Below are positions 813-42,606 of a DNA stretch of 64,000 nucleotides, one piece after another. Each line of letters starts with the position of its first letter. Positions within the stretch are counted from its first letter, which is position 1. The position numbers and the translations under genes were made by a program. The DNA comes from Candidatus Omnitrophota bacterium (GTDB taxonomy: Bacteria; Omnitrophota; Gorgyraeia; JABMRN01; RBG-13-46-9), in NCBI GenBank assembly GCA_013203315.1, contig JABMQJ010000007.1, positions 11,499 through 75,498 on the forward strand. Reading direction: 5' to 3'. A model generated the notes under the pieces. That model was given only the letters and a program-made list of their open reading frames with translations. It made no database searches and was not told where the DNA came from.

Positions 813-2024
813 TCAAGAGGAAAGACTCTTGTATATACCCTCGTATTTGTCAACGGCTGCGTTAAGTGATAAATATTTTTCTGCTGCCTGTCTACAACGC
901 GCAGGAAGCCCTGTGTCTTTAAGCAAGTTTTTCAATTCTAAGATCGCATTTTTATAAGATTCCTTGTCGAAACTGTTTATTACAACGCCTACTTTATCAT
1001 TGCGCACAATTTCTTCCGTATCTCCTATTCCGCTGTTTATTACAACGGGCAAGCCGCATGCCAAATATTCGCCGAATTTCACCGGTGAAGACGATAGCTT
1101 TGAAAAAACCGGTTTAATAAAGAACATTCCCAGGTTAGAGCTTGAAAGATAATCAGGTATAATATCGTAAGAAACAGAATCAATTGTAAACTGTTGTGCG
1201 CCAAGGCCTTTCTTGTCAGCCATATTCTTTGCATAGTCCCTATCTTTCCCGATTAGAAGTAAAAGATGCGCATTATCGATACATTGCCTGGCGGCTTTAA
1301 AAAAATCTATCATCTCTTCCAACATGTACCAAGTACCCACGGAACCAATATACGTAATAATAAATTTGTTTTTAAAAGCAGGTGCCTGGGATAAGCGAAT
1401 ACTTTCGTTCCTTTTTGGCTTAAACTTTTCTGTGTCAGCAGCGCAAGGAATAACGGAAAACTTTATGCCAGATTCATGGTATTTATTTTTTAGGATTTCA
1501 AAAAATTTCTCTGTTAGAACAATTACATGGTCCGAGGACCTGGTTAAAACCCCTTCTAAGAAGCTGACTATTTTGTGTTTGACTCCGTTTCTTTTCCACA
1601 AACCTGCATCTACATATTCTTCGGAATCTATTCCCCTTGTATCGAATATAAATTTCCGCGATAGCAGCCTTGCAACCGGATAGCCTATTAAAGCCGCAAC
1701 CACTGCCCTTGCGTGAACGATGTTAATTCCGTTCCGACTAATAATGTAGAGGCTGTAAAAAAACCCACAAATCACATCGAACGCAGTCGCGGGAATTGTA
1801 GGTTTTTTGTGGTATTTCAAACTGAACCATTCAATGCCGGGTATTTTGTAAATATTTTTTTCTTTTATAGCCTTTTTTTCGAATGTTAGAAGATAGAATT
1901 TAATGCCTCTTTTCGAAAGTTCCCTTAAGTATGGAATAACTTGCGATTGAACTATTGGCTCGGATATTCCGTTGTAGGATATATAAAGCGCTTTTACTAT
2001 TTTATCCGGCATCTTTTCCGCCAT
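813..2024 (-). CDS. Glycosyltransferase family 4 (GT-B)
   Basis: 403 aa; IVHAR, IFDTRG, YIGSVGTWY, C-terminal SSPVKFGEYLACGLPVV motif. Start could be the second Met at 2012. Confidence 0.88.
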   Translation of the reverse strand: MAEKMPDKIVKALYISYNGISEPIVQSQVIPYLRELSKRGIKFYLLTFEKKAIKEKNIYKIPGIEWFSLKYHKKPTIPATAFDVICGFFYSLYIISRNGINIVHARAVVAALIGYPVARLLSRKFIFDTRGIDSEEYVDAGLWKRNGVKHKIVSFLEGVLTRSSDHVIVLTEKFFEILKNKYHESGIKFSVIPCAADTEKFKPKRNESIRLSQAPAFKNKFIITYIGSVGTWYMLEEMIDFFKAARQCIDNAHLLLLIGKDRDYAKNMADKKGLGAQQFTIDSVSYDIIPDYLSSSNLGMFFIKPVFSKLSSSPVKFGEYLACGLPVVINSGIGDTEEIVRNDKVGVVINSFDKESYKNAILELKNLLKDTGLPARCRQAAEKYLSLNAAVDKYEGIYKSLSS

Positions 2025-3327
2025 CCACTTTACGCAACATCCTGTCGATTCCCAATCCGATGAAAATAAAACCTATGTAATAAATAATGCACTTCTGCCG
2101 AATCAAAGTCCCCATATTAGCCTGCGTCAATCCCAGAATGCTTAACCAGCATAGAAATGTAAATAGCGGTATAAATGTCTTTTTAAATTCTGCCTTTATC
2201 GAAATCCACATACCGCTTACAAGGAAAGGAAGAAGACACCACCATATGATTGATTCGATATTTGCCGCTATATGCAATGTGCTGGCCGGCAGCGCTAAAA
2301 AAGGTAAAAGTAAGGCGGCTAAAAAACCTAATGGGAAATAAAGTATTGTTGTAGCATGTGTCGATGTGGATAACGTCCAGAGATACCCTGTATTGGTAAA
2401 AGAGCTGGAATATCTAACCTGGGAAAGCATTGCGGGAATTTGCTCCAGCTGTACATACAGATTAGATAAAAATGGTCCTTTAAATACCTGTAGCAAAATA
2501 AGCGCTATCAGGGAAACTAATATAACAAAATTTTTATATCGCCATTTCCACAATGCGACAAAATAAAAAATTATCGCTGGAAAGATTATGGCAAGAAACC
2601 TTTTCGTGAAATATACGACAAGAAGCGAAAGCAGTAAAAAAAGCACGTTTCTTAGATTCGGGCTTTTGCGTATTTTCATGCATAAATAAAACGCGAGAAT
2701 AAGCGCTAATACAAGCATTGGTTCCTTAAAATTGAAAAGTGACCAAAAAAATGTAGACGGCCAGAGCAAAAACAGAGAAAGAACGAGAGTCGTAACTTCA
2801 TTTCTTATATTTAGATCCTTACAGAGGAAATACACTGGTATAATAATGACGGCATAAAAAAAGCAATTTAATATAAGAAGTATCTGCCCACCGCATGTGC
2901 CGAACAAATAAAAAATAAAAGCACTATATAACTGATAGCGTTGTACATCTTCACGGGCGCCGCCGATAAGGTTAAAATAAGAAAGCTTTTTAATTGGGAA
3001 AAATTTCCCTTCTCGCCATAAGTCTCCTACTATCGTACCAAAATCCCCGTATGTATAGTCGTCACCTTTGTAAGAAAATCCGTAAAATTTTGTATCCACT
3101 GTTTCGTTGTATAAAAAAAGACTTATCAAAACGTGTAAGAGAAAAGCCAACAAAAATAACGTTAAAATTTTTGTCCGCATGTTCTTTTCGACTTTGCGCG
3201 TAATAAAATAGATACCCGCCAAGGCAAGTCCGACAACGGCTATAAGCTGCGGCATTCTATCCATGCCTAGTAGCGCAATCACAAACGCAAACGCGGTAAT
3301 TAAAATATATTTTAGCGGTCTTCGCAT
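2002..3327 (-). CDS. Polytopic membrane protein, GT-C-like / Wzy-like polymerase candidate
   Basis: 441 aa, about 11-12 hydrophobic segments, acidic loop GDDYTY, LFNFKEP and terminal NMGTLIRQK motifs, in a glycan locus. Confidence 0.55.
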   Translation of the reverse strand: MRRPLKYILITAFAFVIALLGMDRMPQLIAVVGLALAGIYFITRKVEKNMRTKILTLFLLAFLLHVLISLFLYNETVDTKFYGFSYKGDDYTYGDFGTIVGDLWREGKFFPIKKLSYFNLIGGAREDVQRYQLYSAFIFYLFGTCGGQILLILNCFFYAVIIIPVYFLCKDLNIRNEVTTLVLSLFLLWPSTFFWSLFNFKEPMLVLALILAFYLCMKIRKSPNLRNVLFLLLSLLVVYFTKRFLAIIFPAIIFYFVALWKWRYKNFVILVSLIALILLQVFKGPFLSNLYVQLEQIPAMLSQVRYSSSFTNTGYLWTLSTSTHATTILYFPLGFLAALLLPFLALPASTLHIAANIESIIWWCLLPFLVSGMWISIKAEFKKTFIPLFTFLCWLSILGLTQANMGTLIRQKCIIYYIGFIFIGLGIDRMLRKVDGGKDAG

Positions 3328-3333: not shown

Positions 3334-5322
3334 TTATGCCTTTTTTACACTTGCTCCCACGACAACAATTATAAGACTAAAAAGCGAAATCCCCACCCAT
3401 AAAGGGTTAAAATAGTCAAAGTACAGATCCAGCCTATACAAGCCTTTCTCCGGCAGCGAAAGCTTCATGAGATTATACTCGTCCCACATGATGCGCGCCG
3501 GCTCTCCGTTCAAGCGTGCACGCCAGAGCGGGTGGCGGGCGATTTTAACAAAAGCGACATTTCTTGGCGAATCATTTCGTATATCGGCCTTTACACGCTG
3601 GTTCTCCAAAGATAACTTTTCATAAGCAGCTTCTTTTTCAAAGCTTATCCATTTGCCCCGAAAATCTTTTAAACGGAATATGCTGAAAATACCAAAATCC
3701 GCCTGATCAGAAAAGAATCCGGATTTGGCCAGTTTATTCTTTAAGTCCGGCTCCACGGTTACGATGTGGCTTGCGTTAAACCGATCCATTGTACTTTTGA
3801 TCCGGGAATTTTCAATTTCTTTTACCGGCACACCGAATATCCTTCCCTGGTCATTACGCATGTACTTCTCCTGAGGAAAGGATGAAGCGGAGCGCGAAAC
3901 GCCTATTTGCGGAATCCGTGTAAAAACGCCCGACAGGGCAAATGCGTCGCTTCTTTTTAAAATGGGGTCATCCACATTGCCAATCGTGTTTTGATATACA
4001 ATTCTGGACCGGCCGAGGGGTATATTCTCGTTAACCCAATCCCAAACCTTGTAAATGTCCGACATCTGGGGTGATTCCTCCAATGTCCGGGAAGCATCAC
4101 GCGCAATATAATTGTAATGCGAGGCCGCGGAAAACATTAACAAAATTACGCATATAGCCGCCAGAATACCCCTTCTTCCGAAACGCTTGAACAATCTACC
4201 GGCGCCATAAGCCGCAAATACATACATACACAATTGTATGTACACGAAGAATCTGCTCATCTGTAGAGTTGGAACCAGAGGTATCTTGTGCCACCAATCA
4301 AAACCCGTAAAAAGATCTATAAAAAACGGGAAACATATTACCACGAACCAAAAGATACGCCATAAAGAACGCTTTGTATTTGGATTTTTTTCGCTTTTGA
4401 AAAATAGGAATGCACCCAAAAGGCTAAAGAAAATTCTTGCCATAACAGGCAAGTTTATTGCAAGCGTTGAGGCGCCGGTTACCGTTGTAAGCGGGCCAAA
4501 GAAGGATTTCGCGCCCCACCGGATGCCCTCTTCGAGGGGCGTTGCGCCACCCAATTTCTCAAAGTAATTCCCTCCGATAAAAAAACCTGCCAGATAGTAA
4601 AAAGAAATCATGACGGCTGACAAGGGTATTATATATGAACAGATTAAAGATTCCGTAAAACGAATTTTTCCTCTGTACGCATTTAGCACATAGGGAATCA
4701 AATATATAAAAAGAATGATTCCTGTGATTATCGCCGCGTAGATATGGACCAATATGATTGAAGCAAAAATAAGCCCCAAAAGAAAGGCCTTCTTTAACGT
4801 CATGGCCTTAATGTTTTTGTCCAGTAGGTGCAAAAATATGAAGAAAAGTCCGATTGCCAGAAAATTATTCCACATGCCGACAAGAATTTTGTCGTAATAA
4901 ATATCGCTTTGCAGCATAAGGCAGGCGGTAATAAGCATTGAGGGCATTTTGCCGAAACGAAACGAGGTAAATTTATAAAATCCGGCGCCCATAAATACAT
5001 AGCTAAACAGGACCATTAGTTTATAAGAAAAATTAAGCGGGAGGAAAAATACCTTGTTTAAAACGACCATTACTAGCGACGTTAACTGGTTATAATCAAT
5101 AAAAATAGGCATGCCGGCCATCCCCTGCATGCTCCAACCGCTTATCCAGTGGTATTTGGGAATGAGTGTATTAGCTAAATAGTAGAGATCGTAATAATGG
5201 AAAGAGTTGTCATATCCTGACATAAGGCCGGGAGCAAATATGCCCCTAAACATGAAAAGCCCGAGGGCTGCGATCAGTACATAATAGATATAATATTTTG
5301 TATATTTTACCAAGATAGCCAT
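3334..5322 (-). CDS. GT-C-fold membrane glycosyltransferase (PTPS-related/YfhO-like) with C-terminal soluble domain
   Basis: 662 aa; first loop GYDNSFHY and W...MAGMPIFIDY, many TM helices, YfhO-like HPLWRARLNG, final TM anchor. Confidence 0.65.
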   Translation of the reverse strand: MAILVKYTKYYIYYVLIAALGLFMFRGIFAPGLMSGYDNSFHYYDLYYLANTLIPKYHWISGWSMQGMAGMPIFIDYNQLTSLVMVVLNKVFFLPLNFSYKLMVLFSYVFMGAGFYKFTSFRFGKMPSMLITACLMLQSDIYYDKILVGMWNNFLAIGLFFIFLHLLDKNIKAMTLKKAFLLGLIFASIILVHIYAAIITGIILFIYLIPYVLNAYRGKIRFTESLICSYIIPLSAVMISFYYLAGFFIGGNYFEKLGGATPLEEGIRWGAKSFFGPLTTVTGASTLAINLPVMARIFFSLLGAFLFFKSEKNPNTKRSLWRIFWFVVICFPFFIDLFTGFDWWHKIPLVPTLQMSRFFVYIQLCMYVFAAYGAGRLFKRFGRRGILAAICVILLMFSAASHYNYIARDASRTLEESPQMSDIYKVWDWVNENIPLGRSRIVYQNTIGNVDDPILKRSDAFALSGVFTRIPQIGVSRSASSFPQEKYMRNDQGRIFGVPVKEIENSRIKSTMDRFNASHIVTVEPDLKNKLAKSGFFSDQADFGIFSIFRLKDFRGKWISFEKEAAYEKLSLENQRVKADIRNDSPRNVAFVKIARHPLWRARLNGEPARIMWDEYNLMKLSLPEKGLYRLDLYFDYFNPLWVGISLFSLIIVVVGASVKKA

Positions 5323-5882: not shown

Positions 5883-7436
5883 ATGGCCAACATTAGTTTT
5901 ATTACACTTTATGACAAGGGATGCATGGGCACAAGATATCTATCCTCCTTGCTAAAAGCGGAGGGGCACGCAACATCTATAGTATACTTAGGAAGGCATG
6001 AGGGAAAAATCAAAAAGGGTAACGATGCCTTAAATTCCGACGAGGATCTGTGGATAAGTGTTAATGAGTACGGGAAAGACTTGGTTCGTAGCTATTCTGA
6101 CCCAATCAGCGAAAACGATATAGATATTTTACTGGATCTCCTGGCTAAAATAAAACCTGATGCGCTGGGCTTTTCCCTGCGATCCATGTTTTTAAACACA
6201 GCCACACAACTAGTAAATCGGATTCGGGAAAAGTTTGATTTCCCTATTATTTTCGGCGGAATAGCCGCGACATGCGATCCCGAAAAATGTATTCGTGAGG
6301 CAGACATAGTCTGCTTAGGCGATGGCGAACAGGCCATGTTAGAGATAGCCCGACGGATAGACAAGAAAGCCCCCTTAAACGACGTAAATAATCTCTGGGT
6401 GCGTTCTAACGATAATATTTATAAAAATGGGTTATACCCGCTTGAACAAAATCTGGATAAATTCCCCTTTCCGGACTACGACTCTTTAAATAAATTCTCG
6501 ATTCACAATGGCGCGCTTATTGAAAACGATCCTGCCATCGGCAACATGAGTAAATATACCTACGAAATCGTAACATCACGCGGGTGCCCTTTTTCATGCA
6601 CCTACTGCTGTAATGACGTGCTTAAAAATACTTATGAGGGGCAGAAATACCTTCGTCGGAGATCCGTAGAAAATGTTATCGACGAATTGAAAATCGCAAA
6701 AGAAAAGCACGGCATAAAATCCGTCCTATTCAAGGATGAAGTCTTCACGTTTGATTTGAATTGGATTAAAAATTTTTCTGAAGCTTACAAAAAGGAAATT
6801 GCCCTCCCCTTCTGGTGTTATACGTATCCGGCGTTTGCTGATAGTCAAATTCTTAATTTGCTAAAAGATTCCGGCATGTTTAATGTAACGATGGGCATTC
6901 AGTCCGGCAGCGAAAGCATCCTTTACAATACTTTTAATCGAAGGACCTCGATAGAGAAAATTATTTCTGCCGCGGATACCCTGATACGTTTAAAATTGCC
7001 TATAAGGCCCCGTTATGATATCATAACCAATAATCCGTTTGAAACCGAGAACGATCGCCAGGCTACCCTTGAATTATTGATGCGCCTTGATAAGCCCGTA
7101 GATTTTGGATTAACCAAACTTTCCTTTATACCGGGATCCAAGATCGTCCGGATGCGGGAGGAAAAACACATAACCGGAGTAGTCGACGAAGATCTTTATA
7201 AGTTTTGGAATACTTTATATTTATTGAATCAATATAGTTTTTTCCCTAACCGTTTCATTAGGGCTTTGAGTAGAAGTAAGTTTTTCCGGGACAAACCGCA
7301 ATTTTTGCAGTTGTTGCTTGTGCCTAAATTCGCAGAAACCAAATTTCAGGGTTTTTTGGATTCATTGAAGGGATGTATACCCGGAAATGCTATCTTATTT
7401 TTGAAGAAAATCCGTTATATTGTAAAAAGATACTAA
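5883..7436 (+). CDS. Cobalamin-dependent (class B-type) radical SAM protein
   Basis: 517 aa; B12-binding-like N-domain (IIFGGIAAT, VCLGDGE), SRGCPFSCTYC, FKDEVF, GIQSGS. Confidence 0.9.
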   Translation: MANISFITLYDKGCMGTRYLSSLLKAEGHATSIVYLGRHEGKIKKGNDALNSDEDLWISVNEYGKDLVRSYSDPISENDIDILLDLLAKIKPDALGFSLRSMFLNTATQLVNRIREKFDFPIIFGGIAATCDPEKCIREADIVCLGDGEQAMLEIARRIDKKAPLNDVNNLWVRSNDNIYKNGLYPLEQNLDKFPFPDYDSLNKFSIHNGALIENDPAIGNMSKYTYEIVTSRGCPFSCTYCCNDVLKNTYEGQKYLRRRSVENVIDELKIAKEKHGIKSVLFKDEVFTFDLNWIKNFSEAYKKEIALPFWCYTYPAFADSQILNLLKDSGMFNVTMGIQSGSESILYNTFNRRTSIEKIISAADTLIRLKLPIRPRYDIITNNPFETENDRQATLELLMRLDKPVDFGLTKLSFIPGSKIVRMREEKHITGVVDEDLYKFWNTLYLLNQYSFFPNRFIRALSRSKFFRDKPQFLQLLLVPKFAETKFQGFLDSLKGCIPGNAILFLKKIRYIVKRY

Positions 7437-7463: not shown

Positions 7464-8192
7464 ATGCTTTGGCTAATGTTTGCGGCCTATAACGAAAGAG
7501 AGAATCTTGCCAACCTGCTGCCCGGGCTATCAAACTTCCTGGAAGGCAAGATTAAAGACTATAAAATATTAATCGTCGATGACGGCAGTACCGACTCGAC
7601 AAAAAATATCGCCGATTCTTTGGATAAGCCCCTCCCCATCGAAATAATTTCGCATGAAAAAAATAAGGGAGTCGGTGAAGTATTTAAAACCGGCTTCTCT
7701 GCGATAAGCCGTCTCGCCGGGCAAGATGATCTCGTAGTCGTCCTGGAGGCAGATGGAACCAGTGACTACACGTTAATACCTGAATTGGTCAGGAAACTCG
7801 AAGGCGGCATGGATATAGTCATCGCTTCTCGCTATATAAAAGGTGGTGCCTATAGGAATTTTCCGCTAAAAAGGCATTTAATAAGCCATATCGGCAATGT
7901 TATTTTAAGCATGGCATTCAGGAATAAACGCATAAAAGACTACACTATATTTTTTAGAGGCTACCGGGTCGAGCTCCTGAAGAAGGCCCTGTCGCAGTAT
8001 AAGGACGGGTTTATTACATCAAATACGTTTCTTGCCAATACGGAAGCGCTTATAAACCTTACGAAACTTACCGATAAGATAGATGAGGTCCCGTTCGTAT
8101 ATTCCTATGAGGTAAAAATCGGTAAGAGTAAAATGCCTCTTCTAAAGACGCTTTTTGATTATATCAAATTCCTGCTTACTAAACGCGCTTGA
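7464..8192 (+). CDS. GT2, Dpm1/ArnC-like polyprenyl-phosphate glycosyltransferase
   Basis: 242 aa; AAYNEREN, IVDDGSTD, HEKNKGVG, LEADG, DIVIASRY, GKSKM. Confidence 0.85.
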   Translation: MLWLMFAAYNERENLANLLPGLSNFLEGKIKDYKILIVDDGSTDSTKNIADSLDKPLPIEIISHEKNKGVGEVFKTGFSAISRLAGQDDLVVVLEADGTSDYTLIPELVRKLEGGMDIVIASRYIKGGAYRNFPLKRHLISHIGNVILSMAFRNKRIKDYTIFFRGYRVELLKKALSQYKDGFITSNTFLANTEALINLTKLTDKIDEVPFVYSYEVKIGKSKMPLLKTLFDYIKFLLTKRA

Positions 8193-8913
8193 CCGCTCGA
8201 GCACTTCGCTCGCGAAAATAAATCGCATACCACACACGCCAAACGTCCGCCATGGCGCCAAAAAGTACGCCCATCCTAATTCCGTGCGAGCGGCCGCTTC
8301 TCCTGGGAGAAGTTTCAACCGGATAGTCAATTATGCGATACCCGGCGCGGGTTGCGCGTATTAAACGTTCCGCCTCCGAAAACGGAGTTTTAGAAACCAA
8401 TGTAAATTTCTCGATAATTTCACGCTTCATAAGCTTGACAGCCCCCGCGTCAAATGTATGAATCCCAAATAATGCACGAGGCACCATATTAAAAAACCAT
8501 GAAATAAATTCCCTCCATAGCCCGTAATTCTTTTTCTTCCGTCGCGCGATAACTATATCGCACTTCCTCACCAAAGGCAACATTTTCAAAATTATCGCGG
8601 TATCCCATTGTCTGTCGGAGGCATTCACGAAAATAAAGTCCTTTCTGGATTCTTTATATAAATGTTCAAAACTGGCGTGTATCCCGATATTGCGCGGATG
8701 GTTAATTACGCGAATGTCGGGAAAGCGTCCGACCATCTCCCTGATTTTCTCGGGTGAACGATCCGTTGAACCGTCGTTGCAAACTAAGATTTCATAATCC
8801 AGCCCGGAATTTGCGAGAAGCCGGTGAGAACTTTCCAGTACTTCGCTTATCGTAGCTTCCTCGTTATATACGGGAAATCCTACCGAGACACTGGGAAGAT
8901 TCATGTTTTTCAT
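8179..8913 (-). CDS. GT2, Dpm1-like glycosyltransferase
   Basis: 244 aa; FPVYNEE, CNDGSTD, HPRNIG, ASDRQ (variant DxD), PRRSGRS. Confidence 0.83.
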   Translation of the reverse strand: MKNMNLPSVSVGFPVYNEEATISEVLESSHRLLANSGLDYEILVCNDGSTDRSPEKIREMVGRFPDIRVINHPRNIGIHASFEHLYKESRKDFIFVNASDRQWDTAIILKMLPLVRKCDIVIARRKKKNYGLWREFISWFFNMVPRALFGIHTFDAGAVKLMKREIIEKFTLVSKTPFSEAERLIRATRAGYRIIDYPVETSPRRSGRSHGIRMGVLFGAMADVWRVWYAIYFRERSARAVKRV

Positions 8914-9940: not shown

Positions 9941-10420
9941 TTACACTCCTTTTTTGCGCACGTCACCTATGACTTTAGCCGGCACCCCGGCTACGATAGA
10001 GTAATCCGGCACATCCTGCGTCACCACGGCACCCGCGCCTATCATGGCGCTTTTACCTATGGTAACCCCGCACATGATCGTAGCAGAGCTGCCGATTGAA
10101 CAGCCGCTCTTGACACAAATTGCGCTAACCTTCCAATCGGTTTCGGTTTTCAAGCGCCCTCCTACGGCAGATCTCGGATAGCGGTCATTAATGAACATGG
10201 CGCCGTGGCCTACAAATACTTCGTCTTCAATTGTCACGCCTTCACAGATAAATGTATGCGAAGATATCTTACAACGCGCGCCTACTTTGGCATTTTTTTG
10301 AATTTCTACGAAAGAACCTATTTTAGTTTCATCGCCTATGCTGCAACCATAGAGATTTACAAGTTCGGGGTGCGGTATTTTTACGTCTTTCCCCAGTCGT
10401 ACATCTTTTTCTATCGGCAT
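9941..10420 (-). CDS. Hexapeptide-repeat sugar N-acyltransferase (WbpD/WlbB-like)
   Basis: Left-handed beta-helix repeats, FINDRYPR, VAGVPAK. Start moved to ATG 10420, which follows a GGAGGAG RBS. Confidence 0.87.
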   Translation of the reverse strand: MPIEKDVRLGKDVKIPHPELVNLYGCSIGDETKIGSFVEIQKNAKVGARCKISSHTFICEGVTIEDEVFVGHGAMFINDRYPRSAVGGRLKTETDWKVSAICVKSGCSIGSSATIMCGVTIGKSAMIGAGAVVTQDVPDYSIVAGVPAKVIGDVRKKGV

Positions 10421-10443
10421 ATTATGCTCCTCTCCTCCGGCGG

Positions 10444-11748: not shown

Positions 11749-11755
11749 AATAATA

Positions 11756-12784: not shown

Positions 12785-12797
12785 TATAAAATTGGGT

Positions 12798-13922: not shown

Positions 13923-13924
13923 AA

Positions 13925-14488: not shown

Positions 14489-14489
14489 A

Positions 14490-17412: not shown

Positions 17413-17421
17413 TTTGAATTC

Positions 17422-21403: not shown

Positions 21404-21405
21404 AC

Positions 21406-24627: not shown

Positions 24628-24637
24628 TTTGTTTCAG

Positions 24638-29379: not shown

Positions 29380-29392
29380 ATTTACCTCTTTT

Positions 29393-30409: not shown

Positions 30410-30410
30410 T

Positions 30411-32614: not shown

Positions 32615-32696
32615 CTTGGCGTTCTCCTTTAAAGCCTAACGTTTATAAGGCATTTCTTTGTCAATTACATGAATTAACGACGGCTACTCTTTTCAT
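32615..32696 (-). pseudogene. Probable relic of a HisH/WbuY-like glutaminase N-terminus
   Basis: ATG at 32696 reads MKRVAVVNSCN*QRNAL*TLGF, resembling the HisH start (..VAIVDYG.GNL.SV.NAL..LG). It sits where wbuY/hisH normally follows a WbuX amidotransferase. Very short match. Confidence 0.35.
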
Positions 32697-34898: not shown

Positions 34899-35258
34899 CT
34901 AGACTATGTTCTCTGTCTTTTTGTTTTCTTGTGTTTTCGCCGTGTACTTCTCATACTCTTCTTTTAATCTTCTATACTCTTTTTCCTTTGCTTTCAAAAA
35001 ATAGAATGTGAGCGTCATCTTCTCCTCAATACCTTTTTGAGTAAGAATATACTTTAGTTTTTTGCTTTTTTCGGGATTCTTGGAAAACGCACCCATCATG
35101 ATCATGCCCTTTTTGACAAGCTCTTTTAAAAGATAATTGGTTTTTCCCAGGGAAATGTTGAGCTTCTGGGAAAGGAGGCGCTGGTTTAAGGATGGATCAT
35201 CCTCCAGTTCCCTTATAAGGCGGAGTGTCTCTTCTTTAGAAAAGCTATGTTCATTCAT
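34899..35258 (-). CDS. EPS-associated MarR-family winged-helix transcriptional regulator
   Basis: 119 aa; NQRLLSQKLNISLGKTNYLLKELVKKG, YILTQKGIEEK, FLKAKEKEY. Confidence 0.88.
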   Translation of the reverse strand: MNEHSFSKEETLRLIRELEDDPSLNQRLLSQKLNISLGKTNYLLKELVKKGMIMMGAFSKNPEKSKKLKYILTQKGIEEKMTLTFYFLKAKEKEYRRLKEEYEKYTAKTQENKKTENIV

Positions 35259-35390: not shown

Positions 35391-36485
35391 CTAAACTTTT
35401 TTAATCGTGGCTACGATATAATCTTTTTCTTCTTTTGTCAATTCGGGGTAAACGGGAATTGCGAAACTTTCTTTGGATAGTTTCTCCGATTCCGGAAAAT
35501 CACCCGGTTTGTGTCCCAAGGATTTGAAGCATTCCTGCAAGTGTAACGGCAGAGGATAATACGTTCGCGATTCTATTCCGCTATCAAGGAGATGCTTAAC
35601 GATTTTTCCCGCATCTTTGCTTCTTAGAACGTACTGATGATAGGAATGTCGATAGCCCTCGGGAACGTGGGGCGTTGTAATAGAACATCCTGCAAGATTC
35701 TTGTTAAAGAATGCGGCATTCTCGATCCTTTGATCTATCCATTTATCCAAATAAGTAAGTTTTATGTTCAGAACGGCTGCCTGAAGATTGTCGAGACGGC
35801 TATTGTATCCTACAATTTTGTGATAATAACTTTTTTCCGAGCCGTGGTTTCTAAGTAGCTTGACTTTCTTGTACAGAGCCTCCTCGTTGGTTACCACCAT
35901 ACCGCCGTCACCGAAGCAACCCAGGTTTTTGCCCGGATAGAAGCTTATAGCTCCTGCTACTCCTAAACTACCGGCCTTTTTCCCTTTATACGTAGAGCCT
36001 ATTGCCTGCGCGCAGTCTTCGAGCACCGGGAGCTTGTGTTTCTTCGCAATGCTTGAAATAGGGTCCATGTCCGCGCATAAACCATACAAGTGGACCGGCA
36101 CTATGGCCTTGGTCTTCTCGGTTATCTTTGCTTCTACGAGGCCCGGATCTATATTGTAAGTTTTAGGGTCTATATCGACAAAAACCGGTTTCCCTCCCAC
36201 CAGGGAAATAGCTTCCACTGTAGCTACAAACGTAAAAGGCGTAGTAATTACTTCGTCACCCTTGCAAATGCCCATAGCATTTAAAGCCAATATCAGTGCG
36301 TCTGTGCCGGAATTTACACCTATCGCATATTGTGTGTTACAATATTCGGAAATATTTTTTTCGATCAGGGAAACCTCTTCCCCTAACACAAATGACTGAT
36401 TGTCGCATATCTTTGATATACGTGCTTCTATTTCTTTTTTTAGCCCCTTGTACTGTTTCTTTAAGTCAAGTATAGGTATTTTCAT
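35391..36485 (-). CDS. DegT-family aminotransferase (WbpE/WlbC/GnnB-like)
   Basis: [56 protein letters not shown]. Confidence 0.92.
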
Positions 36486-37414
36486 AGTTCTCCAATATGT
36501 TCAATGGTTTTTGTTAATCCTTTTTTCAAGTCTATCTTTGGCTTCCATTTAAGTTTAGATTTAGCGAGCGTTATATTCGGCCTTCTTACTTTAGGGTCGT
36601 CTATAGGCAGTGGTTTATGAATAATTTTGCTTTTACTTTTTGTGAGTTTGATTATAAGGCGTGCCAACTGCATGATAGAGAATTCGCGGGGATTTCCTAT
36701 GTTAACTGGATAATTTATATTTGATTTCAGCAATTTGTAAATTCCTTCTATCAAATCGCTTACATAACAAAAGCTCCTGGTTTGAGTGCCGTTTCCGTAT
36801 ACGGTTATGGGACTACCCTTAAGGGCTTGATCCAGGAAATTCGGTATTGCCCTGCCGTCACGCTTTCGCATCCTTTCACCGTAAGTGTTAAAAATACGGA
36901 TTATTCTCGTATCTACATTGTGAGCGTTATGATATGCCATTGTTATCGCTTCGGCGAATCTTTTCGCTTCGTCATAGACACCGCGCGGGCCAACAGGATT
37001 AACGTTGCCCCAATACGACTCTTTCTGCGGGTGAACAAGAGGGTCTCCATAGATTTCACTCGTAGAGGCAAGCATGAATTTGGCCTTTTTTGCTTTGGCT
37101 ACTCCCAGGGCATTATGTGTACCGAGAGAACCCACTTTTAAAGTTTTTATGGGATACTTCAGATAGTCAATGGGGCTCGCCGGAGAAGCGAAATGTAAAA
37201 CATAATTTATGCCGCCTTTTATCTCGATGCGCTTCGATACATCGTGCTTTACGAATCTAAAATTCTTGTGTTTCAGGAGGTGTTCAATGTTGCCCTTGGA
37301 ACCGGTTATCAAATTATCCATGCAGATAACAGAGTAGCCTTCTTTTATAAAAAAATCACATAAATGCGAACCGATGAAACCCGCTCCGCCGGTTATTAAT
37401 ATTCTTTTTTTCAT
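36482..37414 (-). CDS. UDP-glucuronic acid decarboxylase (UDP-xylose synthase) family
   Basis: [57 protein letters not shown]. Confidence 0.9.
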
Positions 37415-37416
37415 TT

Positions 37417-38328
37417 TTATTGATCCCCCTTTAACATTGTTCTTAATCCATGTTCAAAACCAATGGGCTTGAAACTCAATTCACCCTGGGCAGAGCCGAT
37501 GTCCGCCAGTTTATCCTGGTCTATGCTTAAAATTTGCTGACTATGAGTTCGCAGAAAACGGTTAATTTTCCCTAAAACCAGGCACAGCCTTTTAACCGGG
37601 GCTATGGGTAAATGAACTATCATCCTTTTTTTACCCAATACCCTTAGGATAGTCTGTACAATCTCGTTCATGGTCAATGCAGAAGGTCCGGCTATGTCAT
37701 AAATCTTTCCGGTAGTTCCTTCAAGCTCTATACATTTTTTTATGGCATAGATTAAATCGCCTACATATACGGGTTGCCGCTTGTAATACCCGTCTCCGAA
37801 TATGGGCACTAAAGGTGAATGTCCTATAAACTTTATGAGAGAAGATATGTGTTTGTCGTCGGACTGGCCGTATACAACGGTTGACCTTAAGATCGTATAA
37901 TTTAAAGAGCTTTCCTTTAGTTTTTTTTCGGCGGCCAATTTGGTACCGCCATACAAAGAATGCGGTACCAGTTCTGCATCAATTGAGCTTACATAAACAA
38001 ACTTTTCTATATTCGCGCCCAACGATACATCTATCATGTTTGACATGCCGCGAACATTTACGTCTTCGAATTCAGCCTTATTCTTAGAATTTATTACAGA
38101 GGCCAGGTGTATGCAAAAATTTGCATTGCCGATTGCATTTTCCAGTGAGTCTCTATCCTGCAGATCGCCCAGAACTGTGGTTATGTTCTTTGACTTCCAC
38201 AAATCCTTATGTCTGTCACGGCGAACAAGGCATCGAACGTGAGAGCCCTCTTTTGCGAGCTTGTCTACCAAATGCCTCCCGATAAAACCGCCGGCTCCGG
38301 TTACAAAGTAGATATTATTTTTTTTCAT
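37417..38328 (-). CDS. NAD-dependent epimerase/dehydratase (atypical extended SDR)
   Basis: [39 protein letters not shown]. Confidence 0.82.
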
Positions 38329-39835
38329 GCCGCCTATGCTTATAAAGCATCTCCTGCAATACCCGGTCTACTTTCGTTTCCTGTTTTCCGGTAAATAGGT
38401 TAACCAAAAGTCTTACGAACCTCCAGGGTCTAATAGCAAAGGAAATAGCATAAAACATAATCAATCCGCGTATCTTAAAGCCTAAAAGCTCACTTTTGCT
38501 CAAGCTGGAATTCCAGGAATCTGTTTTATTCAATGACAACGAAGAAAATAGCGCAAAATAAAATTCATTGGTTAATTCAAAACGTTTTGGATCTTTTTCC
38601 TTGAGCTCATCAAATACGGAAGTACCCGGAATCGGGATAAAAGTCGAGATGGCAATCTCGTGTACCCCTATAAGGGCCATCTTTCTTATTAGTTTAAATG
38701 TCTTTTTAATATCCTCGACGGTTTCGCCCGGGAAACCGATTAGAAAGAAAAGGCAGACGGTCATTTTGGAACTTATGGCGGCCTTTATCGAATTTTCTAA
38801 TTGACGAAGGTCAATCGTTTTACCCATTTTATCTAATACATCTTTACTGCCGCTCTCCGGCGCAAATGTGATATCCCTGCAGCCGGATTTCACAAGCAGC
38901 TCGGTAACCTCCTTGTCGATAACAACGGTCCTAGTACCCACCGGCAGCTGCCAGCGTATTCCAAGATTACGGCGTAATATTTCGTTCGCAAAACGCACTA
39001 TCCAGTCCTTGCGTATAATGGCTGTCAGATCCATAAGGTGAAAATCATTGGTTTTATATTTATTCATATAAAATTCGATTTCGTCGACAACTTTTTCAAC
39101 GCTCCTCGGCACCCAGACGGAACCCCACATGTTCCGGGCCGTGCAAAAACGGCATCTATAGGGGCATCCGCGGGTTGCGATTATGGGCATCGTGCGCCCT
39201 TTGCTCGCACCCATAAAAAGTCCTCTTTCGATATACTTTTCCACATCTATCAAATCCCACGCAGGGGGCGGGATAGAATCTAAATTTCTTATGCGCGGAC
39301 GCGGCTTATTTGCAATAGGTTTTTGCCCGTCCATATAAGCAATGCCGCTTATGTCATTTAAACGATCGCCTTTCTTTATTGAATCGGTTAATTCCTCAAA
39401 TGTAATTTCGCCCTCGCCCAAAACACAGAAATCCACGGGGGAACTCGACAAAACTGCTTCCCACATACCGGTAGCATGTTCGCCTCCCATGACAAGGGGT
39501 ATGTCCGGAAAACGCTTCTTTATTGCTTTTACCAATTCGCGCACATACGGCCAAACGGGTGTAAACATGCAGGTAATACCGATTACGTCCGATTCCGCCG
39601 GAATATTATTGACTATTTCATCTGTAGCTAATCCCTGCACGACGATATCTCTGTTAAGCGAGTGACCTGACCGTTTGTCCATGGCCTGCCCCACAGCATC
39701 TATAACGTGCACATTATGGCCCTTCTCGCGCATATATGAAGCTATGTAACATAGTCCCAGCGGTGGATGGAAAATAGATGAGTAATTTAATTTTAACTCG
39801 AAATGCGGGGGATTAATCAACGTTATGTTATTCAT
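38315..39835 (-). CDS. Cobalamin-dependent radical SAM protein
   Basis: 506 aa; LINPP, HPPLGLCYIAS, GGEHAT, GEGE, TRGCPYRCRFC, APESGS, PIPGT. Confidence 0.92.
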   Translation of the reverse strand: MNNITLINPPHFELKLNYSSIFHPPLGLCYIASYMREKGHNVHVIDAVGQAMDKRSGHSLNRDIVVQGLATDEIVNNIPAESDVIGITCMFTPVWPYVRELVKAIKKRFPDIPLVMGGEHATGMWEAVLSSSPVDFCVLGEGEITFEELTDSIKKGDRLNDISGIAYMDGQKPIANKPRPRIRNLDSIPPPAWDLIDVEKYIERGLFMGASKGRTMPIIATRGCPYRCRFCTARNMWGSVWVPRSVEKVVDEIEFYMNKYKTNDFHLMDLTAIIRKDWIVRFANEILRRNLGIRWQLPVGTRTVVIDKEVTELLVKSGCRDITFAPESGSKDVLDKMGKTIDLRQLENSIKAAISSKMTVCLFFLIGFPGETVEDIKKTFKLIRKMALIGVHEIAISTFIPIPGTSVFDELKEKDPKRFELTNEFYFALFSSLSLNKTDSWNSSLSKSELLGFKIRGLIMFYAISFAIRPWRFVRLLVNLFTGKQETKVDRVLQEMLYKHRRHEKK

Positions 39836-39875: not shown

Positions 39876-41201
39876 TTAAAAAGGTAAAAATTTCCTCCAT
39901 AGCTGTACCAGATGTTTAAATTGTTTTCTTATGTATGAAAATCTGAAATAATAGTTAAGAAAAGCCCATTCCTTAAGGTTCTTCAGGGTCTCTTTCGACA
40001 TATTTTTGTTGCGTACGACCGGGGTAAAAGAATTAAACTTCTCCCAATCGGGCTCTGTTATAAGTTTCTTGATCCGTCTATAAAATTCTGTTCCCGGAAA
40101 AGGCGTGAGAATGTGAAATTGCGCCAAAAAAGTATTTAATTTCTTTGCGTAACTAACGGTTTCTTTTATAGTCTGGACCGTATCGTCCGGAAGCCCCAGG
40201 AGATAAAACGCTATTATTTTAATGCCTTTTTTTTCGCAGTATCTGATGATCCTTTCCTGGCGTTTTATGTCCACGGCTTTTCTGCTGGCTTTGTCCAGGA
40301 GATCCTGCCTGGCCGACTCGATTCCGAGATTAATGGCTTTTAAGCCCGCCTTGTACATGCTATCAATCAAGCTTTCGTCAAGCAAATCGGTTCTCGTCTC
40401 GCAGGCCCATTCAAGATTAAATTTATTTTTGATCATGCCTTCAGCAATTTGCCTGGATCGCTCTTTATCCAACGTGAATAGCGGATCCCGGAATAAAAGG
40501 CCTTTTATTTTAAATCGATCTTTCAAATATTTTATTTCTTCAATTACGTTCTCCGGGCTTCTCGCCCTCCAGTTTTTCTGGTACGTGAGATATGGGCAAT
40601 AATTACAGGCAAATGCGCAACCCCTGCTTGATTGCATGGAAAGGAACGGCTTCTTTCTTATCGAAGGGGAATAATAGTAGTTACTAATATCAAAAAAATC
40701 CCATTTCGGAAAAGGTAACTTATCCAGCTCCTGCAAAGAAGGGCTATCTACCACACCTTTTGGAATAAAGCCTTTTGAAATTTCCATCGCCGCATGTTCG
40801 GGTTCGCCTTTTATGATAAAATCCCCGAATTTAAGGTATTCATCGGTTAAGTACCCCGCAAATGGCCCTATGAAACCTATTTTAGCCTCCGGGTATTTCT
40901 TTTTTATTTCCGAGGCCCTGCGCAATTCTGACTTATAATCTACTATTGAAGAAGCCAGAATAAATAAATCCCCCTGTGGTATTTTATCGCCGTGCATAAC
41001 TTCAATTTCATGCCCACCTTTCGAAAATATGCTTGCCATATACCCCAGGCTTAATATCGGAATGTTTCGTAAAACTTTTTTCTGCCGCATAATCCATCTG
41101 GCAAAAAAAGATTCTCCGACCTGGGTGTTAATTCCGTAACCCCCCATTTGGTCCTTATTTACAGCGCTATCCGAGGTTCGTTCAACTAATACTATTTTCA
41201 T
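39876..41201 (-). CDS. Cobalamin-dependent-type radical SAM protein
   Basis: 441 aa; N-terminal KDQMGGYG, IGPFA, KGEPE, SRGCAFACNYC, FRDPLF, GIES, PFPGT. Confidence 0.88.
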   Translation of the reverse strand: MKIVLVERTSDSAVNKDQMGGYGINTQVGESFFARWIMRQKKVLRNIPILSLGYMASIFSKGGHEIEVMHGDKIPQGDLFILASSIVDYKSELRRASEIKKKYPEAKIGFIGPFAGYLTDEYLKFGDFIIKGEPEHAAMEISKGFIPKGVVDSPSLQELDKLPFPKWDFFDISNYYYSPSIRKKPFLSMQSSRGCAFACNYCPYLTYQKNWRARSPENVIEEIKYLKDRFKIKGLLFRDPLFTLDKERSRQIAEGMIKNKFNLEWACETRTDLLDESLIDSMYKAGLKAINLGIESARQDLLDKASRKAVDIKRQERIIRYCEKKGIKIIAFYLLGLPDDTVQTIKETVSYAKKLNTFLAQFHILTPFPGTEFYRRIKKLITEPDWEKFNSFTPVVRNKNMSKETLKNLKEWAFLNYYFRFSYIRKQFKHLVQLWRKFLPF

Positions 41202-42606
41202 TGCATAAATAGGATTGAATCAATCCGTTAATTTCCGTTTTCCACATTGCATACAACGGAAACAGTAGTATAAGAAGCGGTATAAGCGGAGAAAAATGGG
41301 TTATAACATTAAGATTTCGTATATGGTGTGTGGTTATGTTATGCAGCCATTGGGCAAGATTCGAATTTAGGCCTTTAAATGCAAATAGCCCAATGTTTAT
41401 AAAGGAACTGTCCGCGTCACCGTATTGAACCCCGCACCAGTTAATAAGCATAGACAGTGCGGCTACCCAAAGTATTATTTTGTATTTAACTTTTCTATAG
41501 ACAAATACAAGCGGTATCATTAGAAAGGGTACAAAACACAAAAGATACCTTGGTCCGAAATCTCCTCCCCACGGCCATATCCAATTGGCGAACATGGCGA
41601 TGACGATAAAAACAGAAAGTGAGAATGCGGATATTAAAAGTATCTCGGCCATATATTTTTTTTCCGGTTTCTTAAAAAAAAGAGCTATTCCGTAGACTGA
41701 AAAAAGCAGCACCGGCATATACATAAACATACCGCGATAAGTGCCAAAAGTAAGCTCGAATATCATTCTCGGCCGCGGGAAAGATAGCGGTACGCGCCCT
41801 ACCATAGCGCTGTAAGTAGTAGCCATCGCGAACGGATTATCGAAACATCGGTAGTGATAATATGCATATATGGCGCCGATTGATAAAGCGCCCAGAATAA
41901 GAAAAACATAATTTAATATTTTATCCTTCCTGAAGCTCAAGATACCATATGCAAAGATAAGGAAAGATCCTATGGCCAGCATATAATCCGTAAGTACTGC
42001 TAGCCCAAGACATATCCCCGTTAAGAAAAATGAAAGGTTTCCTGATGGTGTACTCTTAGATCTAAATAGTAAATAAAAAGCGCTAAACAACGCAAAAGCC
42101 CCTAATGTTTGGGACAAAAATCTTGTTGAGCAATAAAATAAAATAGTTCCGAACGCGCATATGAAAACGGTAAGAATCCTTTCTTTCTCCTTCATATCAA
42201 ATTTTTGCAGCAAATCGTACAGCAAAACCGCGATTACCGCGCCCGGTAGAACTGAAAGAAAAAAAGCGAAAAAGAGGTTTAAAATACTAAATTCGAAATT
42301 CTGGTAGATTGCTTGCGGAATAGCGCTCAATAATGGTTTGAGAATAACATAAAGCGGTGCAGCCAGCAAACTTAAGCCGGGAGCAGCGCCTATGTAGTAG
42401 TGTCCTTTAAAGAATGCCTTATCGCGGGTATGATCAGAATACTTATCTATAACAAAAGTTCTGTCTTCAACAATAGATTTCGTCAATATTATATAACGAT
42501 TGGTACCGGCAGTTACGTAGCCGGGAGCAATATAGAACAGGTAGACAAGCAATACCGTTAAGAAGATCTTAACTTTGGTATTCCGTAGTATCTGCATATT
42601 TTTCAT
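41182..42606 (-). CDS. GT-C-like membrane glycosyltransferase
   Basis: 474 aa, about 12 TM; RDKA..GHYY..APGLS, RGMFMYMP, WPWGGDFGPRYL. Confidence 0.7.
   Translation of the reverse strand: MKNMQILRNTKVKIFLTVLLVYLFYIAPGYVTAGTNRYIILTKSIVEDRTFVIDKYSDHTRDKAFFKGHYYIGAAPGLSLLAAPLYVILKPLLSAIPQAIYQNFEFSILNLFFAFFLSVLPGAVIAVLLYDLLQKFDMKEKERILTVFICAFGTILFYCSTRFLSQTLGAFALFSAFYLLFRSKSTPSGNLSFFLTGICLGLAVLTDYMLAIGSFLIFAYGILSFRKDKILNYVFLILGALSIGAIYAYYHYRCFDNPFAMATTYSAMVGRVPLSFPRPRMIFELTFGTYRGMFMYMPVLLFSVYGIALFFKKPEKKYMAEILLISAFSLSVFIVIAMFANWIWPWGGDFGPRYLLCFVPFLMIPLVFVYRKVKYKIILWVAALSMLINWCGVQYGDADSSFINIGLFAFKGLNSNLAQWLHNITTHHIRNLNVITHFSPLIPLLILLFPLYAMWKTEINGLIQSYLCNENSIS

Follow-up and report, generated by a model that had tools for sequence, protein, structure and literature searches.

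Why should a bacterial surface-glycan locus carry a battery of radical S-adenosylmethionine (SAM) enzymes, and on which molecules would they act? The question is raised by a 64,000-nucleotide stretch of DNA (positions 11499–75498 of contig JABMQJ010000007.1, here C5; hereafter, the window) from an uncultured Omnitrophota bacterium, whose assembly GCA_013203315.1 comprises 1.5 Mb in 32 contigs and is 97% complete. In this window, six radical SAM genes (rSAM1 to rSAM5 and one encoding a SPASM-domain protein) are interleaved with genes for Dpm1-like glycosyltransferases of family 2 (GT2s) and for membrane-embedded glycosyltransferases of the GT-C type. The answer that we favor, and regard as probable when taken as a whole, is that the window represents most of a surface-glycan locus of at least 60 kb in a lipopolysaccharide (LPS)-making bacterium, and that the radical SAM enzymes most likely tailor sugars for an LPS-type glycan, partly by way of a polyprenyl-phosphate/GT-C route.

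Radical SAM genes of the window

Gene content was assigned through Pfam and NCBIfam searches of 57 window proteins, by which positions 1–50348 form a single surface-glycan locus; the GC content is about 41% throughout the window. The encoded DnaK shares 95% identity with its counterpart in a metagenome-assembled genome of Candidatus Omnitrophota, and Omnitrophota make up most of its 80 best matches. Nearly all of the genes lie on the minus strand, and the overlapping or abutting arrangement remarked upon in a preliminary description of this DNA is evident from the coordinates of the open reading frames (ORFs), as is the existence of all 17 genes named there. To the left, the locus extends as far as the contig end, with C5:1–11498 holding GT4, GT2 (four transmembrane (TM) helices), epimerase, and methyltransferase genes. 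Contigs from two DNA sequencing runs of one study, possibly the source of this DNA, match window positions 12000–31900 without differences, and this agreement does not constitute independent support.

All six radical SAM proteins possess the PF04055 domain and a Cx3Cx2C motif. Five of them, namely rSAM1 (5883–7436, plus strand), rSAM2 (17422–18816), rSAM3 (27949–29379), rSAM4 (38315–39835), and rSAM5 (39876–41201; the latter four on the minus strand), had been taken for enzymes with a cobalamin (B12)-binding domain. This holds for rSAM1 to rSAM4, class-B radical SAM enzymes that match the B12-binding domain PF02310 at 35.6, 86.4, 74.1, and 75.9 bits, respectively, but not for rSAM5, an AprD4-like protein paired with a short-chain dehydrogenase/reductase (SDR) gene and lacking a B12-binding match both in Pfam and in a genome-wide PF02310 scan that returned 12 matches. 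The N-terminal region of rSAM5 is nonetheless class-B-like, and still aligns to that of rSAM2 (residues 46–441 versus 21–452). In rSAM1 to rSAM5 the cysteine motif starts at residues 235 (where it reads CPFSCTYC), 201, 198, 224, and 195, respectively, and the five proteins are old paralogs with pairwise identities of 23–33%. The sixth protein (18813–19847, minus strand) also carries PF13186, in line with its original designation as a SPASM enzyme, and has weak PDB matches only, at about 1e-4.

None of rSAM1 to rSAM5, nor the SPASM protein, reaches the cut-off of any NCBIfam family, including HpnJ, HpnR, BchE, and MiaB-type families, an outcome that does not refute the proposed role in glycan synthesis. 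The best NCBIfam score of rSAM1 is 110 bits against a cut-off of 360, while rSAM3 and rSAM4 score 225.5 and 180 bits with BchE (cut-offs of 481.35 and 481, respectively). HpnJ (TIGR03471; cut-off of 577.6) is the top model, below cut-off, for both rSAM2 (251 bits) and rSAM5 (179 bits); the former also scores 220 bits against 481 with BchE (TIGR02026), and the latter 132.4 against 500 with AprD4 (NF033070), a family whose scores over the window enzymes range from 53 to 132 bits. Among solved structures, PDB sequence searches gave QCMT/MgmA (9ccb), AprD4, TokK, TsrM, CysS, and OxsB as the nearest relatives of the five enzymes, with AprD4 ranking best or second-best for every one of them. For example, rSAM2 is closest to 9ccb (2e-27) and AprD4 (5e-23), and the best match of rSAM5 is AprD4 6fd2 (E 6.8e-31). 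In a review on B12-dependent radical SAM enzymes, 9ccb is identified as QCMT/MgmA and AprD4 is stated not to bind cobalamin (PMC12931638).

The SDR that accompanies rSAM5 is an NmrA/NDUFA9-like extended SDR (37417–38328, minus strand), with NDUFA9 as its best PDB relative (5e-21), ahead of MoeE5 (6e-14) and GalE (3.5e-13). AprD4 works with a partner, AprD3, and NDUFA9 is a membrane-peripheral subunit; the resemblance of the SDR to the latter may be read as a faint hint of a membrane-bound substrate. With its absent B12 domain, its AprD4-like sequence, and its conserved SDR partner, rSAM5 is likely the most specific mechanistic case of the five.

The clustering extends to the genome as a whole. 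Thirteen ORFs of the class-B type were found in its 1.5 Mb, five of them within 35 kb, a span in which chance alone would place about 0.28 additional copies (Poisson P about 2e-4). Twelve of the thirteen reside in glycan or GT-C contexts: five in the window, five on contig C16, and one each on contigs C18 and C28. Contig C16 holds a second glycan locus in which five class-B genes occur with WbuX-like, WecB-like, GT2, and PMT_2 genes; on C18, an rSAM2-like gene is found with two SPASM genes and a GT2 gene, with a GT2–PMT_2 pair elsewhere on the same contig; and on C28, an rSAM1-like gene lies two genes away from that of a PMT_2–TPR protein. All 12 PF02310 domains of the genome fall in ORFs of 455–570 amino acids, the size of class-B radical SAM enzymes, and it would seem that this organism reserves its cobalamin for enzymes of this kind. 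Nowhere in the genome was a PF02310 match seen in an ORF of the length that MetH, a mutase, or a corrinoid methyltransferase would have. The genome does encode CobS and a BtuF-like protein, making corrinoid handling plausible.

GT2 and GT-C glycosyltransferases

Four Dpm1/ArnC-like GT2s had been recognized, and PF00535 matches, NCBIfam names, and PDB relatives (for the two of the four that were searched) agree with that assignment. They are encoded at 7464–8192 (plus strand, co-directional with rSAM1), 8179–8913, 16699–17412 (directly downstream of rSAM2; PF00535 at 112 bits), and 20672–21403 (the latter three on the minus strand). A crude hydropathy count gave no TM helix in any of them, and their best NCBIfam names, i.e., ArnC, AglJ, PgfS, and PpgS, are all below cut-off, with family scores of 44–72 bits against cut-offs of 325–529 (ArnC NF007986, AglJ TIGR04182, and PpgS NF058614). 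Polyprenyl-phosphate sugar synthases without TM helices do exist, as exemplified by PpgS and human DPM1. In PDB searches, the protein at 20672 was closest to PfDPMS (5mlz, E 7.5e-22), followed by GtrB (5ekp) and ArnC, and that at 16699 was likewise closest to PfDPMS (5mlz, E 2.4e-24 over residues 2–230), with GtrB (5ekp) and ArnC also among the top matches. A fifth GT2, which had been missed, is encoded at 19844–20671 (minus strand); it represents another subfamily (PF13632) with C-terminal TM helices. The Glycos_transf_2 profile matches this protein only from position 66 on, and its gene directly adjoins the stop codon of the preceding GT2 gene; the nucleotide-binding part at its N-terminus may have diverged or been shortened.

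Seven membrane proteins, all encoded on the minus strand, had been proposed to be GT-C-like, and the evidence is strong for four of them (10444, 41182, 3334, and 23338), moderate for two (22367 and 21406), and weak for one (2002). The protein at 10444–11775 is of the PMT_2/ArnT type, exceeding the cut-offs of PMT_2 (69.4 bits) and PMT (38.2 bits) and matching ArnT at E 2.5e-8. Structure prediction and comparison bore out the anticipated GT-C fold for several others. AlphaFold2 models of the protein at 41182–42606, encoded directly upstream of rSAM5, and of memB (3334–5322), which has a C-terminal, beta-rich periplasmic domain, have predicted local distance difference test (pLDDT) values of 94.7 and 87.7, respectively, and their top 37 Foldseek matches in the PDB are all GT-C enzymes; for memB, these are led by STT3, AftD, AglB, ArnT, and AftA, with E values down to 1.6e-8. 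By sequence, memB matches PTPS_related at 23 bits, below cut-off, and has homologs carrying PF10131, while the protein at 41182 matches the LA_3751/3752 family at E 2e-21, also below cut-off, and has some homologs carrying PF13231. Structure searches of the ESM Atlas identified the protein at 23338–24627 as GT87-like (feature score of 0.99 and TM score of 0.85 to GT87 clusters) and placed that at 22367 at TM scores of 0.66–0.74 to Mannosyl_trans2, PMT_2, and YfhO clusters. The latter has no Pfam family; it and its neighbor at 21406 are tandem paralogs, 59% identical, together spanning 21406–23344, each a compact GT-C-like protein of about 325 amino acids recognized by structure only.

The weakest of the seven calls is memA (2002–3327), a probable GT-C with 13 TM helices. 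It matches PMT at E 8e-4, below cut-off, and the LA_3751/3752 family at E 1.4e-3, and an hhalign comparison paired it with the family of 41182 (83% probability, E 8.8e-6) and gave no match with that of 3334. Its 32 homologs include none with a Pfam match, and those with a named source are all from Omnitrophota. Finally, GT-C enzymes have acidic residues in their first extracytoplasmic loop, and aspartates near the N-terminus that may correspond to these stand out in three of the families: D54 and D62 are nearly invariant in that of 41182, D38 is invariant in that of 3334, and D89 and D90 are invariant in that of 2002.

Relatives in other genomes

Is this arrangement peculiar to one bacterium? 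A search of GTDB species genomes gave 149 confirmed relatives of rSAM2. The top 80 of these were examined, and 75 gave usable loci; loci L003, L010, L036, and L040 were left out where the focal gene was lost in gene calling, and L005 where it had no neighbors. The 80 relatives belong to DPANN archaea, Omnitrophota (some labeled Planctomycetia), Elusimicrobia, the candidate phyla radiation (CPR), and methanogens. A Dpm1-like GT2 was found within one gene of the rSAM2 homolog in 14 of the 75 loci and within three genes in 29, while another class-B radical SAM gene was within one gene in 17. The 142 genes directly flanking the homologs include, by Pfam, Radical_SAM (20), GT2 (19), B12-binding (14), PMT_2 (9), GT1 (7), and LPG_synthase_TM (3) proteins, as compared with Radical_SAM (15), Epimerase (10), GT2 (7), B12-binding (7), GT1 (6), PMT_2 (5), GT9 (5), and Wzx (3) among 149 genes lying seven to eight positions away. 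GT2 genes are thus about three-fold enriched beside rSAM2 homologs (19/142 versus 7/149; Fisher P 0.013 by Pfam, 5e-4 by BLAST class). Among the 13 loci whose rSAM2 orthologs are at least 50% identical, six (L003, L007, L010, L020, L033, and L042) have a directly adjacent Dpm1-like GT2, and in five of these (L003, L010, L020, L033, and L042) the adjoining gene is an ortholog of that at 20672 (43–63% identity). SPASM homologs also recur beside rSAM2 homologs, for example in L009, L011, and L012.

Within Omnitrophota, 95 of 151 sampled genomes have one or more class-B radical SAM matches at E≤1e-30, and as many as 11 were scored in a single genome. In an unrooted FastTree phylogeny of 77 sequences, drawn from 18 of the 80 rSAM2 loci and all later loci and with several long branches flagged, the five window enzymes fall into five separate, well-supported clades, each with its own conserved neighbors; the clades of rSAM1, rSAM2, and rSAM5 comprise 6, 16, and 9 rows with support of 99%, 100%, and 100%, respectively. 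The rSAM2 clade (loci L002–L042) mixes Woesearchaeota, Pacearchaeota, a CPR bacterium, Lentisphaerae, and Omnitrophota at 46–56% identity, a mixture that suggests gene exchange across domains among co-occurring anaerobes.

Each of the remaining clades keeps company of its own. Orthologs of rSAM1 at E≤1e-80 occur in two of the 151 Omnitrophota genomes, the source genome included, and a 75% identical ortholog adjoins the rSAM5 module in L216. Those of rSAM3 occur in ten genomes, again including the source; a NeuB homolog lies within 20 kb in five of nine ortholog loci, and a BFO-like glycosyltransferase is adjacent in one more. The window's backbone recurs in L195 in compact, syntenic form, with genes for WbuX, a methyltransferase, NeuB, PseG, the BFO-type glycosyltransferase, rSAM3, Wzx, a GT87-like protein, GT2, GT4, PMT_2, memB, and memA; the syntenic orthologs of memA (2002) and of the GT87-like protein (23338) are 48% and 53% identical to theirs in the window. 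The rSAM4 gene has orthologs in 14 genomes, the source among them; of 12 loci, four have RmlA/RmlB/DegT-like genes abutting the ortholog, and in seven it abuts a gene for either a Dpm1-like GT2 or a membrane protein of at least six TM helices.

For rSAM5, an ortholog of the SDR at 37417 follows directly downstream in four of six Omnitrophota loci (L181–L184) and in the archaeal locus L028, and L216 retains the window's order of GT-C, rSAM5, rSAM4, and SDR. Since a search with rSAM5 alone gave two close orthologs among eight loci, the spread of the rSAM5–SDR pair outside Omnitrophota rests on that one archaeal locus. Nine membrane proteins encoded beside rSAM5 orthologs were tested: six exceed the cut-off of PMT_2, PMT, YfhO, or DUF2079, another has a PMT_2 match that falls short of it, one has no match, and one is an LPG_synthase_TM protein. 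Both YfhO and DUF2079 are members of the GT-C clan. Radical SAM and GT2 genes alternate in L181 and L182. A gene for a glutamine-dependent, asparagine-synthase-like amidotransferase comes after the rSAM5–SDR pair in L183 (L183:11360–13246) and L184 and after the SDR in L186; the window lacks it. In L184 (L184:952–1893), an LPG_synthase_TM gene sits between those for a Dpm1-like GT2 and a GT-C, and proteins of this family are candidate flippases for lipid-phosphate-sugars.

Sugar precursors, export, and acceptor

Which sugars would be available to such enzymes? The locus has genes for dTDP-rhamnose synthesis (RmlABCD), two UDP-sugar dehydrogenases, and several extended SDRs by Pfam; homology predicts that it makes dTDP-rhamnose, UDP-uronic acids, a diacetamido-uronic-acid-type sugar, and a CMP-pseudaminic-acid-type nonulosonic acid. 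The precursor genes occupy 42614–50348 (minus strand), where an epimerase/dehydratase, a UDP-sugar 6-dehydrogenase, RmlD, RmlB, a transglutaminase/TPR protein, RmlA, RmlC, and a UDP-glucose dehydrogenase are encoded. The transglutaminase-core and TPR protein (46741–47796), situated between rmlA and rmlB, has an N-terminal hydrophobic segment, and a 53% identical ortholog lies beside RmlB in L216. A second block (11756–16741, minus strand) encodes a GT4 followed by a 2-epimerase (12798), a hexapeptide acetyltransferase (13925), a GFO/MocA oxidoreductase (14490), and a DegT aminotransferase (15473), a combination that resembles the WbpI/D/B/E pathway to a 2,3-diacetamido uronic acid.

The pseudaminic-acid-type module (29393–34889, minus strand) consists of NeuB/PseI (29393), a PseG–GNAT fusion (30411), a CMP-sugar cytidylyltransferase (31874), a WbuX amidotransferase (32674), and a PseB-like dehydratase (33867), and rSAM3 is attached to it. 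A winged-helix, MarR-like regulator (34899–35258; HTH_24), a DegT/PseC-type aminotransferase (35391–36485), and an extended-SDR dehydratase/epimerase (36482–37414) complete the stretch up to the rSAM5-associated SDR, all on the minus strand. The PseG and WbuX parts exceed their cut-offs (TIGR03590, 164.6 bits over 153.55; TIGR03573, 349.8 over 203.2), and the set PseB/C/H/G/I/F is represented by Polysacc_synt_2, DegT, NeuB, and CTP_transf_3 matches in addition to PseG; PseH scores 34.7 bits against a cut-off of 93.1, yet the GNAT domain is present. On the other side of rSAM3 lie genes for a Wzx/MOP-family flippase (26454–27956; Polysacc_synt_3) and a BFO_1060-family/KpsS-like GT-B (24638–26482; both minus strand), a candidate nonulosonic-acid transferase with an NF046086 score of 78 bits, below cut-off, and no match in a PDB sequence search. 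The coupling of radical SAM genes to GT2 and GT-C genes, as put forward in the preliminary description, would not extend to rSAM3, which sits in a CMP-nonulosonic-acid module whose product would be transferred by the GT-B and not by the polyprenyl-phosphate/GT-C route.

Priming phosphoglycosyltransferase and Wzy_C-type genes occur on contigs C13, C16, and C18, and the single LPG_synthase_TM gene of the genome is on C24. LpxC is present in the genome, for which reason LPS is the most likely acceptor. The locus also holds three GT4s, one of them (813–2024) next to a class I SAM methyltransferase gene that runs off the window (1–816), and between two of the glycosyltransferases discussed above it encodes a GFO/MocA oxidoreductase (8910–9938) and a hexapeptide acyltransferase (9941–10450); all of these are on the minus strand. 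Directly upstream of the glycan locus, 50369–55211 encodes a 722-residue protein with weak LptD_N and LptC matches only, and next to it a pair of GGDEF diguanylate cyclases, of which one also has a GAF domain; housekeeping genes and an hrcA–grpE–dnaK–dnaJ operon are also found beyond the locus. In relatives, a conserved hrcA–dnaK–accD–lptD block directly adjoins another glycan gene set (L006:2910–14291), and L195 and L216 each retain different sub-modules of the window's locus, as would a mosaic, hypervariable island.

A proposed pathway and its alternatives

How might these parts work together? In the reading that we favor, GT2s would attach sugars to polyprenyl phosphate on the cytoplasmic side of the membrane, these donors would be flipped, and GT-C enzymes would add the sugars to the glycan outside the cytoplasm, with several "three-component"-style branch decorations running in parallel. 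The MOP/Wzx protein of the locus could serve as the flippase for polyprenyl-phosphate-sugars, by analogy with the MATE flippase described in PMC11127046. The six radical SAM enzymes would edit unactivated sugar carbons, each in its own sub-pathway. Thus, rSAM2 and the SPASM enzyme would act with the two flanking Dpm1-like GT2s, rSAM3 would modify a nonulosonic acid or a precursor of it, and the substrate of rSAM4 would be an NDP-6-deoxy or amino sugar. The probably cobalamin-independent rSAM5 and its neighboring SDR would jointly carry out an AprD4/AprD3-like dehydration–reduction (deoxygenation) or an oxidation–reduction epimerization, with the product passing to the adjacent GT-C (41182). 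Finally, rSAM1 would act with the GT2 at 7464 and the divergently transcribed GT-C pair. As a default guess, the four enzymes with B12 domains are most likely C-methyltransferases, solely because most characterized class-B enzymes are methyltransferases.

Several observations weigh against this reading. Enzyme chemistry, the stage of the substrate (NDP-sugar or lipid-linked sugar), and the glycan target are all inferred from gene context, and, with radical SAM scores so far below curated cut-offs, a reaction type is not transferable from the named families. Unlike GtrB and ArnC, the GT2s have no TM helices, and they stay below every NCBIfam cut-off; they may be ordinary Leloir enzymes that extend the nascent unit. 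Within the window, no priming phosphoglycosyltransferase, Wzy_C-type polymerase/ligase, or GtrA or SMR flippase was found, and neither of the two flippase families (PF04138 and PF00893, respectively) was found in the whole genome. Enrichment of both GT2 and GT-C genes near homologs had been anticipated, and while the former is seen beside rSAM2 homologs, PMT_2 is not significantly enriched there (9/142 versus 5/149, P 0.28); moreover, the P values are optimistic because the loci are related, and the distal genes are also glycan genes, so that adjacency may mean shared locus membership only. Lastly, one class-B gene, on contig C7, lies outside a glycan context: there (L194:7058–11015), genes for a thymidylate-synthase-like protein, a SPASM radical SAM protein, the class-B enzyme, and a RibD_C reductase form a cluster that may belong to a nucleotide- or pterin-type modification pathway.

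The glycan character of the distal genes (Epimerase 10, GT1 6, GT9 5, and Wzx 3 of 149), the PMT_2 result, the TM-less GT2s under all family cut-offs, and the different gene subsets held by L006, L195, and L216 would all be in keeping with a simpler account, wherein the radical SAM enzymes act on nucleotide sugars destined for a repeat unit of the ordinary, Wzx-dependent kind, the GT2s are Leloir enzymes, and proximity to GT2 and GT-C genes amounts to co-residence in a mosaic island. That account is an appreciable possibility, though an unlikely one, in light of the GT2 enrichment beside rSAM2 homologs, the fact that the top solved relatives of the two searched GT2s are polyprenyl-phosphate sugar synthases and not Leloir GT2s, the GT-C genes that flank rSAM5 orthologs in several families of the phylum, and the seven GT-C genes of the locus, which imply heavy use of lipid-phosphate-sugar donors. 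A sharper version of the favored reading would have the radical SAM enzymes edit the polyprenyl-phosphate-sugars made by the Dpm1-like GT2s, at the membrane face and before flipping and GT-C transfer, following the logic of HpnI/HpnJ, ArnD, or DprE1/E2, with the SDR joining in for rSAM5. HpnJ acts on lipid-bound glucosamine, and it is the best NCBIfam model of rSAM2 and rSAM5, although their scores are far below its cut-off. The GT2s directly beside close rSAM2 orthologs (6/13 loci), the alternation of radical SAM and GT2 genes in L181 and L182, and an SDR that is nearer to NDUFA9 than to nucleotide-sugar epimerases point the same way, as does the precedent for lipid-linked tailoring in three-component systems (PMC11127046). 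The abutment of rSAM4 orthologs on RmlA/RmlB/DegT-like genes and the position of rSAM3 in a CMP-sugar module suggest, on the contrary, soluble substrates, and lipid-linked editing can be entertained only tentatively.

It is also conceivable that the substrates are not sugars at all, and that the enzymes modify peptides or else lipids, be it the polyprenol carrier, the acyl chains of lipid A, or membrane-spanning lipids. Characterized class-B and SPASM radical SAM enzymes do include lipid modifiers, and the weak NCBIfam matches of the window enzymes name a ladderane-lipid radical SAM enzyme, HpnR, HpnP, and Tes; Omnitrophota also feature in literature on the producers of tetraether lipids. Those matches are remote, however (Tes, 42 bits against 450; ladderane enzyme, 110–144 against 360), the conserved neighbors are sugar-nucleotide enzymes and glycosyltransferases, and no precursor-peptide-like ORF or lipid-synthesis gene was found among the 57 annotated window genes, all of which makes this explanation very improbable. 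A link to hopanoids was considered and rejected, given HpnJ and HpnH scores under cut-off and no squalene–hopene cyclase gene found in the 97%-complete genome; a role in the synthesis of ribosomally synthesized and post-translationally modified peptides (RiPPs), or of lipids, likewise had no supporting neighbors among the annotated genes.

Comparison with known systems

The favored tailoring pathway has its closest counterparts in the three-component glycosylation systems, including GtrA/B/C, ArnC/ArnT, PpgS/Rv3779, and the PPPRS, MATE flippase, and GT136 of C. youngae, with which the locus would share cytoplasmic polyprenyl-phosphate sugar synthases and GT-C enzymes decorating a finished glycan; a MOP-family flippase is encoded in it as well. 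It differs in that a single locus combines four to five GT2s resembling such synthases with about seven GT-C genes, in the absence of TM helices from its GT2s, and in that no GtrA/SMR flippase was found. In the available text of PMC11127046, a MATE protein acts as the flippase, the SDR epimerase ORF13 sets the identity of the sugar, and DprE1/E2 provide a further precedent for tailoring within a three-component system; radical SAM enzymes, recurrent auxiliary partners in the window, are not among the components named in that text.

With the radical SAM enzymes of antibiotic sugars (GenK, GenD1, Fms7, and MoeK5, as well as AprD4/AprD3), four of the five window enzymes share class-B architecture, and the pairing of rSAM5 with an SDR, known here from gene adjacency alone, mirrors the dehydratase and reductase of the AprD4/AprD3 system. 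Unlike those enzymes, however, the window's come from an uncultured anaerobe, where their setting is a primary cell-surface glycan locus and not a secondary-metabolite cluster. The review cited above places GenK, Fms7, GenD1, and MoeK5 among methyltransferases of uncharacterized structure, and its text uses none of the words polysaccharide, glycan, or sugar (PMC12931638).

In the HpnI/HpnJ/HpnK hopanoid pathway, a GT2 gene neighbors that of a class-B radical SAM enzyme, which carries out the rearrangement of an amino sugar bound to a lipid. HpnJ is the top model for rSAM2 and rSAM5, but with less than half of the score needed, and the squalene–hopene cyclase expected of such a pathway was not found in the 97%-complete genome. 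Wzx-dependent O-antigen loci of the Pse/Leg and Wbp types, in turn, have in common with the window the Rml proteins, UDP-sugar dehydrogenases, the PseB/C/G/H/I/F set, WbuX, Wzx, and GT4s; the window is set apart by its lack of a priming transferase or Wzy_C, its six radical SAM genes, and its unusually high GT-C content.

The system had been proposed to be undescribed, and no description of radical SAM batteries with polyprenyl-phosphate/GT-C glycosylation or with nonulosonic acids was found in the literature searched, which did not extend to subscription journals and supplements. The pattern is not unique to this locus, though, being common in the metagenome-assembled genomes of Omnitrophota, DPANN, CPR, and Elusimicrobia. 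The component parts are of known kinds; it is their recurrent combination and the clade-specific partnerships that appear to be undescribed.

Significance for uncultured anaerobes

To our knowledge, nearly everything known about radical SAM chemistry on sugars comes from antibiotic pathways, and the recurrence of the present pattern in many uncultured anaerobes, to the extent that gene context is a guide, points to an unexplored sugar chemistry. The five clades, with their conserved partner genes, amount to concrete and separately testable enzyme–substrate hypotheses. Since every detectable B12-binding domain of this 1.5-Mb genome resides in such an enzyme, corrinoid dependence would here be tied to envelope synthesis. 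It is tempting to go further and to suggest, as a speculation that we think rather unlikely, that Omnitrophota, and by virtue of shared clades DPANN, CPR, and Elusimicrobia too, edit glycan units on the lipid carrier itself by oxygen-free chemistry. In that event, a cobalamin-independent, AprD4-like enzyme and its NDUFA9-like SDR would deoxygenate or epimerize polyprenyl-phosphate-sugars for a dedicated GT-C, class-B enzymes would C-methylate such lipid-linked sugars, and another would give rise to a pseudaminic-type nonulosonic acid modified at carbon. Surface glycans would then be diversified at a level not known before, and most of the need for cobalamin in these small genomes would be explained. 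More generally, if radical SAM enzymes do tailor primary surface glycans, then C-methylated, deoxygenated, or rearranged sugars may prove to be common envelope constituents in uncultured anaerobes, among them the episymbiotic or predatory nanobacteria that make contact with their hosts through the cell surface.

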